A stretch of 2,991 nucleotides of DNA, taken from the NCBI RefSeq assembly GCF_003334335.1, contig NZ_QOWQ01000087.1; one strand, 5' to 3'. Shown one piece after another: positions 272 through 2,938 of this stretch. How positions within the stretch are numbered: position 1 is the stretch's first letter; the number at the start of each line of letters is the position of its first letter. Made by a program: the position numbers and the translations under genes. The DNA is from Escherichia coli. GTDB taxonomy: Bacteria > Pseudomonadota > Gammaproteobacteria > Enterobacterales > Enterobacteriaceae. The notes beneath the pieces are model-generated. The model was not told the DNA's origin and did not search any database. It saw only the letters and a list, made by a program, of their open reading frames with translations.

Positions 272-697
272 TCAATGCACGACAACAGCATTACCAGGCT
301 GACCACCACTGTTAGTCAGGGTGCCCCAGGCGATCGCCGCTGCGACAAAATCATCCACATCTTTCACCAGCCGATCCCTCCGTTCGACGATCTCACGGTA
401 ATATTCAGAGCTGTGACTGCGCATACGGGCCACCAGCAGAGGCGGCATTGCCTTTTCGATCGCCGGTAACAGAGCCTGAATTTTTTCAACAGCATCAGGG
501 GTGTCTTTATCCAGCCAACGGAAAATTTTCTGGGTATTACGAGCCAGGGCTTCCGGATGGCTGTCGTCGTACAGTTCCGGGAACGTCATTCCCAGCTCGA
601 AATACGCTTTGGTAATTTTCGCAGCCGGTACTTTTTCGCCGTCCGGATGCGCCCAGACATTCATCGCCATGCGGATGTGTTCATGCTTGATTTTCAT
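272..697 (-). CDS. ydaT: YdaT-family protein (historically annotated as toxin YdaT; reported as a CII-like regulator in Rac-type prophages)
   Basis: 141-aa ORF. AGGAG lies 8 nt upstream of ATG at 697..695. N-terminus MKIKHEHI... and the length match YdaT as I recall it. Its start overlaps the 3' end of the upstream Cro-like gene by 17 nt, the typical ydaS-ydaT arrangement. Confidence 0.7.
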   Translation of the reverse strand: MKIKHEHIRMAMNVWAHPDGEKVPAAKITKAYFELGMTFPELYDDSHPEALARNTQKIFRWLDKDTPDAVEKIQALLPAIEKAMPPLLVARMRSHSSEYYREIVERRDRLVKDVDDFVAAAIAWGTLTNSGGQPGNAVVVH

Positions 698-962
698 GAA
701 TCAAGCTCCTAGAAAGTGGTTGTGTTAACGTTTTGGTATCTTCCAGCTCGGGCCAAATATTCATCCAATCAAAAGGCCTTAGTTGCTGACGTGTAACTTC
801 ACCATTACTGGCTCGCTCAATAAGGACACATAACGATGCCCCTAACACTTGACCTTTACTCAATGCTTTTCTTAGATAACCGATGCTGGTATCACACTCG
901 CATGCAAACATACGCTGTTCATCTGACGAAAGAGAATTGAGAAATATTCTTAATTCTTCCAT
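681..962 (-). CDS. Cro-like HTH regulator of the YdaS/COG4197 type, first gene of the rightward-equivalent early operon
   Basis: 93-aa ORF. AAGGAG (973..968, minus strand) lies 5 nt upstream of ATG at 962..960. The protein has a C-terminal motif ...QQLRPFDWMNIWPEL... that I associate with the YdaS/Cro-like family. It is divergent from the repressor gene across a 100-bp operator-bearing spacer. Confidence 0.75.
   Translation of the reverse strand: MEELRIFLNSLSSDEQRMFACECDTSIGYLRKALSKGQVLGASLCVLIERASNGEVTRQQLRPFDWMNIWPELEDTKTLTQPLSRSLIHENQA
686..705. promoter_or_regulatory. Perfect inverted repeat CTTGATT-N6-AATCAAG centred on the ydaT-like start codon; candidate protein-binding dyad
   Basis: Sequence cttgatt ttcatg aatcaag at 686-705 has 7-bp perfect arms and a 6-bp spacer. 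It overlaps the ydaT ATG (695-697, minus strand) and sits next to its RBS. I recall a TTGATT-N6-AATCAA site being reported for YdaT-type proteins, but this is from memory and unverified. Confidence 0.4.
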
Positions 963-1062: not shown

Positions 1063-1482
1063 ATGGACAAATATGAATTTAGACGACAGCAACTCATCAA
1101 AATTCGTGATGAGAAATGCGATGGTAAAGCGGTTAACGTGGCCAGAAAGATCGGGCGCGAGCCTTCTTATGTATCAAGAATGTTGTACCCAGAGGGGAAA
1201 AAGGGAAAAAAACGGATCGCTGATGATATGGTGGAGATTATCGAAGAGTCCTTTGGGTTACCCCGGGGATGGATGGATGGTATCGTTTCATCATCAACGA
1301 ACACAGCCTCCAGTTATGAAACAAGGGTTCTAACGCCACGACAACGTATTTTTTTAGATCTCTTAGACGAACTGCCAGAAAGTGAAGCGGATAAATTATT
1401 AAAAACTCTTGAAGAGAAAAAACAGTATTACAATATGATCTACGAAGAAATCCGTAAAAAGAAAGCACAAAACGCATCATAG
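1063..1482 (+). CDS. Prophage CI-type repressor (DicA/RacR-like); N-terminal HTH and C-terminal helical dimerisation-like region
   Basis: 139-aa ORF divergent from the Cro-like gene. The N-terminal half contains the phage-repressor motif ...GKKRIADDMVEIIEESFGLPRGWMDG.... The C-terminal ...LTPRQRIFLDLLDELPESEADKLL... resembles the C-terminus of E. coli DicA as I recall it. No SD precedes the ATG, consistent with a leaderless repressor mRNA. Confidence 0.8.
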   Translation: MDKYEFRRQQLIKIRDEKCDGKAVNVARKIGREPSYVSRMLYPEGKKGKKRIADDMVEIIEESFGLPRGWMDGIVSSSTNTASSYETRVLTPRQRIFLDLLDELPESEADKLLKTLEEKKQYYNMIYEEIRKKKAQNAS

Positions 1483-1746: not shown

Positions 1747-1899
1747 ATGGATACTATCGATCTTGGCAACAGCGAATCTCTGGTATGCGGCGTGTTTCCC
1801 AACCAGGACGGCACGTTTACCGCGATGACGTATACCAAAAGTAAAACGTTTAAAACCGAAGCTGGCGCGCATCGCTGGTTAGCAAGAAACTCCGACTGA
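1747..1899 (+). CDS. Small 50-aa protein in the position of ydfA/ydaF in Qin/Rac
   Basis: GAGG (1738-1741) lies 5 nt upstream of ATG 1747. Product is MDTIDLGNSESLVCGVFPNQDGTFTAMTYTKSKTFKTEAGAHRWLARNSD. Size and position (first gene after the repressor, same strand, upstream of dicF) match ydfA/ydaF (about 51 aa); family assignment is from memory only. The 114-aa ORF in the track (1555..1899) is an RBS-less extension starting inside the palindrome. Confidence 0.5.
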   Translation: MDTIDLGNSESLVCGVFPNQDGTFTAMTYTKSKTFKTEAGAHRWLARNSD

Positions 1900-1910
1900 T
1901 GAGGTTGACG

Positions 1911-2312
1911 ATGGAATTTAAAGATTTACCAGTACCATTCCAGGAAATGGCATCTAATGTGGTTCGCTCTCAACTGGCGACTCTTGACCTGAGTACTGTA
2001 GAAAAGGAAACCATCGATACTATATCCGGTAACGTGCGTCGTGCCTTTATAGGTCTGTATGAAGAGAAGCGCCTATTCGGCGGACAGAATTCGACTGAAA
2101 ACAAGAATCAAGCAAATGATGAGAAGCTGAAACACATTATCGCCTTACTTTTGGAAGACGCAAAACGTCTACAGCAACTGGAACCAAATGCAGGCACAGA
2201 GGCCCGCATTTGGATTGCCATGAAATCACTCAAATGTGAAAGCAGTGATTATTTCAAAACAACAATTAAAACTACTCAACTTTCGGGAGAGCTACTGAAG
2301 AAATTGCCATAA
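1911..2312 (+). CDS. Hypothetical 133-aa early-operon protein; occupies the span that E. coli K-12 Qin annotates as ydfB plus ydfC
   Basis: GAGG (1901-1904) lies 6 nt upstream of ATG 1911. An alternative in-frame ATG at 1899 overlaps the upstream stop (TGATG) but has no SD. The ORF is uninterrupted to TAA at 2310-2312. No family recognised. Confidence 0.5.
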   Translation: MEFKDLPVPFQEMASNVVRSQLATLDLSTVEKETIDTISGNVRRAFIGLYEEKRLFGGQNSTENKNQANDEKLKHIIALLLEDAKRLQQLEPNAGTEARIWIAMKSLKCESSDYFKTTIKTTQLSGELLKKLP

Positions 2313-2551
2313 GAGCATGGTCTTTCTCTTGTTCTGCAAGATGAGCATTAATACCTGCTATGGTTTTTTCAAATTTATCTATCTGTTGAATAACAACTTC
2401 GCGGTATACGTTTGTATTTGTACCACCAAGCGCAGCCGTTAATGCAGAAAGCATATTTAGTATCATATCAGTGCGATATGAAAAGAATCCTGATAGCTTC
2501 ATCTTGTTTTTCAATAATAGATTGCAGGGCCTCAATTTGCTTTTTATCCAT
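2272..2551 (-). CDS. Antisense ORF with a strong RBS but an interrupted reading frame: either a 27-aa upstream ORF (2468..2551) coupled to a 64-aa ORF (2272..2466), or a frameshifted gene of about 90 aa
   Basis: Minus strand: GGAGG, 5 nt, ATG (2551..2549). Frame A gives MDKKQIEALQSIIEKQDEAIRILFISH then TGA (2470..2468). One nt later ATG (2466..2464) opens the +1 frame, MILNMLSALTAALGGTNTNVYREVVIQQIDKFEKTIAGINAHLAEQEKDHALMAISSVALPKVE, ending at 2272. The track's 94-aa ORF uses GTG at 2556, which abuts the SD with no spacer. The 3' end overlaps the convergent 1911..2312 ORF by 41 nt, which lowers confidence. Confidence 0.3.
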
Positions 2552-2556
2552 TTCAC

Positions 2557-2885
2557 CCTCCTGAGGGTTGGTAATTAAGGAGTTCTCCACGGGTCAGGTG
2601 GAGTGCGTGCGCCGGACACGGGTGAGCATCCGGCACTGACAGTTTACTGAAAAGGATATATCCCTGAAAAGTCAGGGCATAACACGAAAGCGCCCGGCGA
2701 AGTTAGTCTCTCTGTATAGGTCGTCATTAAATTTTCGTCGACCGCGCGCTTCCGGTTGTGGCACTCCGCGAAATGGCGCGGCGGTAAGTATGGCGGGGTT
2801 ATTCCTTCCCCGTTGAGGACACCGGGTTGTCAGGTTGACCATACGCTTAAGTGACAACCCCGCTGCAACGCCCTCTGTTATCAAT
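2557..2885 (+). other. GC-rich, highly structured non-coding stretch upstream of dicF; probable processed precursor region of the dicB-operon transcript
   Basis: No credible ORF on either strand. Sharp rise in GC content after 2557. Hairpins: gccgga/tccggc (2611-2616 with 2630-2635), ccctga-aaag-tcaggg (2662-2677), ccgcgc/gcgcgg (2742-2747 with 2776-2781), and ggttgtca/tgacaacc (2825-2832 with 2853-2860) with an alternative partner gcggggtt at 2793-2800. In K-12 DicF is excised from a long precursor by RNase E and RNase III. Confidence 0.4.
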
Positions 2886-2938
2886 TTTCTGGTGACGTTT
2901 GGCGGTATCAGTTTTACTCCGTGACTGCTCTGCCACCC
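2886..2938 (+). ncRNA. dicF: DicF small RNA homologue (prophage-encoded ftsZ-targeting sRNA), with its T-run immediately downstream
   Basis: Sequence tttctggtgacgtttggcggtatcagttttactccgtgactgctctgccaccc matches the 53-nt E. coli K-12 DicF as I remember it at 52 of 53 positions (K-12 ...ctgccgccc, here ...ctgccaccc), followed by ttttt. Genomic context fits the Qin order dicA - ydfABC - dicF - dicB: a repressor and small ORFs upstream on the same strand. Confidence 0.7.

Follow-up and report, generated by a model that had tools for sequence, protein, structure and literature searches.

Organization of the early-left region

The window, by which is meant the whole 2991-nt stretch of Escherichia coli DNA that was analysed, belongs to a Qin-like lambdoid prophage, of which it covers the immunity and early-left region, as judged from the annotation of the identical stretch in strain JE86-ST05 and from the list of open reading frames (ORFs). 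The features are collected in Table 1. According to the JE86-ST05 annotation, dicB is located just outside the window, past DicF.

The feature under study is a minus-strand reading frame with a strong start signal and an early interruption. As described in the first-pass annotation, the start signal consists of GGAGG (2561-2557), five nucleotides (GTGAA) and ATG (2551-2549). The frame closes after 27 codons, which encode MDKKQIEALQSIIEKQDEAIRILFISH, at a TGA stop codon (2470-2468), and a second frame opens at ATG 2466-2464, 1 nt past the TGA, and continues for 64 codons to a TAG stop codon (2274-2272). The same annotation had pointed to a minus-strand TTTT run (AAAA on the plus strand) at positions 2481-2484 and to an overlap with the convergent 133-aa ORF (1911-2312, plus strand); the run is present as described, and the overlap is exactly 41 nt (2272-2312).

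Table 1. Features of the window, with the evidence for each
Feature	Position in window	Strand	Evidence
YdaT-family gene	272-697	-	JE86-ST05 annotation and ORF list
cro-like regulator	681-962	-	JE86-ST05 annotation and ORF list
139-aa repressor-side gene	1063-1482	+	JE86-ST05 annotation and ORF list
DUF1391/ydfA-like gene	1747-1899	+	JE86-ST05 annotation and ORF list
133-aa convergent partner ORF, PHROG 1363 (unknown function)	1911-2312	+	ORF list, annotation and PHROGs
Disrupted allele of PHROG 18692, a prophage gene of 92 codons when intact (RefSeq WP_000358771.1)	2272-2551	-	One-T deletion and PHROGs
C-terminal fragment, 64 codons; start ATG 2466 is Met29 of the intact protein	2272-2466	-	Translation
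N-terminal fragment, 27 codons and TGA; codons 1-23 as in the intact protein	2468-2551	-	Translation
Run of four T (plus-strand A4), site of the +1 insertion; three T when intact	2481-2484	-	Pairwise alignment
Shine-Dalgarno (SD) sequence GGAGG, 5 nt ahead of ATG	2557-2561	-	Sequence and 19 leaders
Leader hairpin A: CTCCAC, 7-nt loop, GTGGAG (6 bp)	2585-2603	-	MFE fold and covariation
Leader hairpin B: stem of 11 bp, loop of 6 nt; the ORF mRNA is predicted to start with it	2609-2636	-	Fold
Candidate sigma-70 promoter: -35 TTTTCA (2665-2670), 18-nt spacer, -10 TAAACT (2641-2646)	2641-2670	-	8/12 consensus; weak, putative
DicF sRNA gene	2887-2938	+	Rfam RF00039, 70.1 bits, E 1e-14

Several other features of the window were observed. 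Positions 1517-1553, just 3' of the repressor-side gene, hold an extended and perfect inverted repeat (ACCCATAGGTATTTA-cttt(t)-TAAATACCTATGGGT) that is flanked by T-rich sequence on either strand, a possible operator or bidirectional terminator before the early-left genes. Within a DnaT-like replication gene, six close-set GTGAC(A) repeats at positions 18-66 (cgtGACATcaatGTGACcacgtaGTGACAcgccGTGACAtgtcGTGACAtttcGTGACg) look like the iterons of a prophage origin. Additionally, the DicF copy has a G to A change at position 2934 (CTGCCACCC, vs CTGCCGCCC in K-12 and in strain O17_K12a), in the 3' stem/terminator part, and its Rfam score is 70.1 bits, lower than that of the O17_K12a copy (76.7 bits).

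The interrupted frame is a disrupted allele of a conserved prophage gene

A megablast search with positions 2230-2620 returned a full-length match in E. coli O17_K12a that is shorter by one base. In the pairwise alignment, the sole indel is the length of the T run, which has four bases in the window (hereafter T4) and three in O17_K12a (T3), and the nucleotide identity to intact alleles is 97-98%. In the T3 version the SD sequence and ATG are unchanged and are followed by one 92-codon ORF. The window sequence, when repaired, likewise encodes 92 aa, and the length of 90 aa given earlier for the fused protein is thus corrected. Annotated copies of the intact allele, under the accession WP_000358771.1, exist in O17_K12a and in the enteropathogenic (EPEC) strain E2348/69 (E2348C_RS07385).

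A homologue search with the repaired protein recovered a family whose members are encoded in a single frame. The 92-aa protein matches PHROG 18692 with an E value of 5.9e-63, its residues 1-92 aligning to profile positions 1-92. Salmonella homologues have 93 aa and share 72-74% identity, while distant relatives have 90-93 aa and share 33-44% identity. These homologues have an uninterrupted frame of about 90-93 codons, whereas the T4 run brings the frame in the window to an end after 27; the window sequence is thus a disrupted allele of PHROG 18692 and not an intact member. Compared with PHROG 18692/WP_000358771.1, the window has the locus, the SD sequence and the ATG in common, and differs by the extra T and by the substitutions K45N and P65A.

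In the PGAP annotation, the T4 allele is called as a 76-aa coding sequence that begins at ATG 2502, in the frame of the C-terminal fragment, and is given no pseudogene flag. In genomes identical to the window this product is WP_225380399.1, which is N-terminally truncated. Since a 76-aa coding sequence is called and is not flagged as a pseudogene, the truncated T4 product may have residual function.

The differences between the E. coli and Salmonella genes at codon positions 1, 2 and 3 number 20, 11 and 32, respectively. The dN/dS ratio for this comparison is 0.245 over the whole gene; for codons 1-24, which are 5' of the T run, it is 0.27. These codons are under purifying selection, which identifies the 27-codon ORF as the N-terminal part of the 92-aa protein. 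Met29, the residue at which the second frame starts, is Ile or Leu in distant homologues and is thus not a conserved start.

These observations bear on a functional two-cistron design, in which a 27-codon leader peptide would be translationally coupled, through UGAuAUG, to the 64-codon ORF. Termination-reinitiation at a stop-start spacing of 1 nt is established in bacteria, the stop and start codons here are separated by exactly this distance, and the SD sequence of the upstream ORF is very strong. However, the arrangement is confined to the minority T4 allele, and the other copies and all distant homologues encode a single protein. With most copies and all distant homologues in a single frame, a coupled pair is unsupported, as is a programmed frameshift. 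In addition, the N-terminal 24 codons are selected as part of the whole protein, the second start codon is unconserved as Met in distant relatives, and no SD sequence was found ahead of ATG 2466 by sequence inspection. A two-cistron design is therefore very unlikely.

The 92-aa protein has no match in Pfam-A (even at E <= 10), NCBIfam or PADLOC, and the sole annotation for it in PHROGs is 'unknown function'. A sequence profile search of the PDB returned nothing usable (best E 0.36), a tblastn search of 50,697 deposited phage genomes gave no match to the protein, and a literature search found no paper that mentions WP_000358771. An AF2 model of moderate confidence (pLDDT 72, pTM 0.46) consists of three helices (residues 3-41, 48-59 and 69-84), for which a Foldseek search of the PDB and BFVD returned nothing at E <= 0.001. 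The protein has no predicted transmembrane segment, and its maximum Kyte-Doolittle average over 19 residues is 0.93. As modelled, the 92-aa protein is soluble and all-helical. A membrane protein of the SieB or holin type was also considered, and is ruled out by hydropathy.

Distribution of the T3 and T4 alleles

If the extra T were a sequencing or assembly error, then the true sequence would be T3 and the gene would be intact in this strain. A single base in a homopolymer is the commonest kind of assembly error, and most copies have T3. When 5426 complete E. coli genomes were searched with 80 nt of sequence that had the run at its centre, 126 gave a match, of which five match T4 exactly and about 121 carry T3 (among the matches listed, all 57 non-identical rows are one base shorter). 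Similarly, a search of IMG/VR with a four-sequence alignment identified the gene at 50 loci, with an intact T3 frame at 45, T4 at four, and divergence after codon 67 at one.

However, the run is only 3-4 bases long, and the distribution of T4 argues against an error. The entire 2991-nt window is 100% identical in four complete genomes from two projects (JE86-ST05, JE86-ST02, UCPROB-001 and UCPROB-002), of which JE86-ST02 and JE86-ST05 originate from Japan. The identical 76-aa truncated product is also annotated in SW070917, from Galapagos wastewater, in which the adjoining repressor gene differs. The five complete genomes with T4 are from at least three unrelated origins, and four IMG/VR contigs also carry it. 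Additionally, T4 is present on two haplotypes. That of the window has the private substitutions A135T (K45N) and C193G (P65A), which occur in no T3 copy, while the second has the synonymous substitution C78T. Its recurrence in isolates of unrelated origin, together with the linked private substitutions, marks T4 as an inherited mutation and not a read error. It is extremely unlikely that the gene is intact in this strain, and T4 is a real, heritable and circulating mutation.

The substitutions K45N and P65A would fit relaxed selection after the frameshift, two changes being too few to serve as proof. Other disrupted alleles of the gene occur in E. coli and Salmonella (P0009, P0013, P0014/P0016, P0007 and P0008), and these include a frameshift at an A6 run (window ~2362-2367), truncations and C-terminal replacements. 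The gene has been lost repeatedly and independently, which is typical of cryptic prophage genes.

The convergent neighbour and the dicBF operon

The overlap of 41 nt between the antisense ORF and its convergent partner recurs in other contexts. In the window it spans positions 2272-2312 and the partner has 133 aa; in a Salmonella locus (L003) it spans positions 4242-4282 and the partner has 71 aa; and in a P2-like element (L009) it spans positions 489-529 and the partner is a 214-aa HTH protein. The final ~20 residues of these neighbours are alike (..QLSGELLKKLP, ..HLSEALLKKCT and ..QIPEELLIRCS). The likeness of the partner tails across contexts indicates that different early genes enter the cassette and end at a TAA located opposite a conserved Leu codon on the other strand.

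An ORF that is antisense to a known polycistronic transcript, that overlaps a convergent ORF whose tail peptide is alike in three contexts, and that has no known function or domain might not be a gene at all, its conservation being due to the opposite strand, where the constraint would come from the dicBF precursor RNA or from the end of the partner ORF. In contrast to this expectation, the partner overlap accounts for only 41 of 279 nt, and both the 20/11/32 codon-position pattern and the dN/dS ratio of 0.245 are those of the ORF itself. The match to the PHROG profile is full-length, and the spacing between SD sequence and ATG is conserved. Furthermore, homologues of 90-93 aa persist without an overlapping partner, beside integrases or cI-type repressor genes, and since these relatives are conserved, constraint on the opposite strand does not explain the conservation. 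That the ORF is not a gene is therefore extremely improbable.

The first-pass annotation had placed the ORF antisense to the DicF precursor transcript and had noted no annotated gene at this position in K-12, and both statements hold. In K-12, DicF is processed from a polycistronic precursor transcribed from dicBp (PMC10448788), and by homology the ORF is opposite this precursor. In K-12 Qin, ydfC ends and the homology to the window starts at ~2566, just 5' of the SD sequence; the region upstream of dicF is present, and the 133-aa gene and the antisense ORF are both absent. The absence of the whole cassette from K-12 Qin thus accounts for the lack of an annotated gene at the K-12 locus. It was also proposed that expression of the ORF would interfere with the dicB-operon RNA, which is plausible.

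A conserved and structured leader precedes the gene

Conservation of the ~90-nt leader 5' of the ATG (minus strand, within 2552-2670), which includes a CUCC motif, exceeds that of the ORF, and the leader is still present in relatives with a protein identity of only 40-44%. The SD sequence and ATG are retained in Salmonella (GGAGGGTAAAATG) and in the relatives with 33-44% identity, which places the start signal beyond chance, and a check of their conservation across 19 diverse leaders gave the same result.

Folding of the leader in the sense of the ORF gives a minimum free energy (MFE) of -37.8 kcal/mol (z = -3.89), whereas the opposite strand has z = -0.25. In an alignment of the 19 diverse leaders, 95% of the cells pair and six pairs are doubly changed, and none of 500 shuffles matches this. 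Hairpin A has compensatory double changes in three of its six pairs across relatives. Hairpin B shows covariation in L013 and L011, and three of its G.U pairs are possible in the ORF sense only. In total, G.U pairs fill 60 cells in the ORF sense vs 5 in the opposite sense, although most of these come from three invariant pairs, and Salmonella and one cargo-less variant have leader changes that pair on the plus strand only. The comparison favours hairpins that would act in the ORF sense, and is not decisive. In a search for the leader among known RNA families, Rfam returned DicF alone at the gathering threshold and chance-level matches at E <= 5 over positions 2500-2900.

The candidate promoter upstream of the hairpins agrees with the consensus at 8 of 12 positions by our own scan, and falls below threshold in a promoter-prediction scan. 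In Salmonella, L009, L011, L145 and L182, hairpin B is preceded at a distance of 4-7 nt by a -10-like TAnnnT motif. No intrinsic terminator was found on either strand over positions 1900-2991, including 3' of the ORF.

A plus-strand hairpin, CCCTGA-AAAG-TCAGGG, was also observed at positions 2662-2679. Its start resembles that of lambda boxB (GCCCTGAAAAAGGGC). On the opposite strand this hairpin holds the putative minus-strand -35 element; it is conserved in Salmonella and replaced in L009.

Variable cargo behind the common leader

The sequences that follow the leader were surveyed in 80 IMG/VR loci with the leader core (L064-L143), together with the further loci L181 and L185. The common leader, SD sequence and ATG are followed by this ORF, by a 91-aa distant homologue of it (hhalign probability 96%), by members of PHROGs 7249, 2605 and 10348, or by further small ORFs of 63-96 aa; the leader of K-12 Qin is an example without cargo. 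Besides this ORF, the leader and SD sequence precede at least five small-ORF families, with the mosaic junction at the start codon. L181 has two leader-cargo units in tandem on one contig. The leader was also found in 22 of 50,697 deposited phage genomes. For instance, the isolated phage Evi has the leader and a 77-aa antisense cargo ORF, adjoining kil and an exonuclease gene.

One tentative reading, to which we give rather less than even weight, is that a portable platform composed of a weak promoter, the two-hairpin leader, a CUCC motif, the SD sequence and the ATG marks a polymorphic cargo slot, in which at least six unrelated families of 63-96 aa would be swapped antisense in the dicBF/kil operon of Qin- and Rac-like prophages. 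As part of the same doubtful reading, and by analogy to P22 sieB and sas, the convergent DicF precursor would pair with the leader and so switch off or alter cargo expression on induction or superinfection, and the cargo would consist of undescribed prophage-expressed exclusion or host-modulating factors. To our knowledge, a conserved leader with a variable-cargo slot has not been described before.

Comparison with known systems

The position of the ORF resembles that of sieB in the Rac prophage of K-12, which runs antisense to the early-left operon, directly following the DUF1391 gene ydaF (the ydfA homologue) and preceding kilS and kilR. This slot and orientation match those of the ORF in the window, in JE86 and in E2348/69. 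However, SieB and the present protein are without sequence or domain likeness (no match in Pfam-A at E <= 10 or in PADLOC), and the leader proximal to Rac sieB is different and lacks the two-hairpin element. SieB is also larger, at ~160-190 aa, and membrane-associated, in contrast to the 92 aa and predicted solubility here. The antisense RNA sas of phage P22 was reportedly traced to the PL transcript by Ranade and Poteete in 1993. The translation of P22 sieB is controlled by sas (PMC12197685).

The annotated Rac sRNA KilS (L184 3906-4003, K-12) sits where Qin has DicF. The region of its 5' end (CAACCGGAGGCGCACTCC) and the sequence GCGCCTTCGTGTTGTGCCC are shared both with the Salmonella leader region and with the window at positions ~2700-2760 (CCGGTTGTGGCACTCC and GCGCTTTCGTGTTATGCCC). 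The shared sequence suggests a possible common ancestry of the KilS and DicF sRNA-precursor regions.

A location antisense to lytic genes, combined with a promoter of its own, is typical of a prophage accessory locus, for example STMMW_20121 of ST64B (Owen et al. 2020, PMC7067206). The present gene is similar to such 'moron' genes in that it is small and antisense, has its own leader and putative promoter, is mosaic in distribution and shares its slot with variable cargo. It differs in that no terminator was found and in that the promoter is a prediction. Judging from position and architecture, the intact gene most likely encodes a prophage-expressed accessory protein that would be opposed by convergent early-left transcription.

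A programmed +1 frameshift that would yield the 92-aa protein from the T4 allele was also considered. The slip site of prfB is CUU_U. The T4 sequence (AGG AUU CUU UUC) shares CUU_U and the frame-restoring +1 shift with prfB and has AGG 3 nt upstream, and slippage of the peptidyl-tRNA-Leu from CUU to UUU would allow UCA UAU CGC to be read as in the wild type (...L S Y R...). Nevertheless, the chance of this is close to nil: in contrast to prfB (CUU UGA C) the A-site codon is UUC (Phe), neither a stop nor a rare codon, the SD-like stimulator is merely AGG and weak, the shift is an unconserved minority mutation with most alleles in frame, and the downstream frame is altered at conserved residues.

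Interpretation and significance

Three readings of the interruption had been offered at the outset: a coupled pair of ORFs, a +1 frameshift that was either programmed or mutational, and a sequencing error. Of these the mutational frameshift is supported, the coupled pair and the programmed frameshift are unsupported, and the sequencing error is very unlikely. The interrupted frame is ordinary gene decay and not a special translation mechanism.

Overall, the window very probably carries a T4 pseudogenised allele of a genuine prophage gene, an explanation that includes the following steps of reinitiation and accessory-gene expression. The extra T in the T3 run shifts the frame after codon 23, such that ribosomes starting at ATG 2551 terminate after 27 codons in the T4 allele. 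The 64-aa C-terminal fragment may then be produced by termination-reinitiation at UGAuAUG, which would be accidental. The intact gene is probably an independently transcribed accessory ('moron') gene, which would be read from the weak promoter at ~2641-2670 with a ~90-nt 5' leader that contains the two hairpins. Because of its antisense position inside the dicBF operon, its expression would be tied to repression of that operon: the ORF would be on when the early-left (dicBF) operon is repressed, and would be opposed by convergent transcription on induction.

The interrupted frame is of minor weight in itself. What the window carries here is an annotated hypothetical gene in decayed form, the recognition of which averts a false recoding or leader-peptide lead. 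More useful is the structured leader and SD sequence that drives varied small proteins antisense to the DicF/DicB operon, at the position occupied by sieB in Rac. If the small proteins are indeed accessory products expressed by the prophage, phage exclusion and host modulation are candidate roles for them, and the convergent layout could change the output of DicF and DicB in the numerous pathogenic E. coli with prophages of this type.
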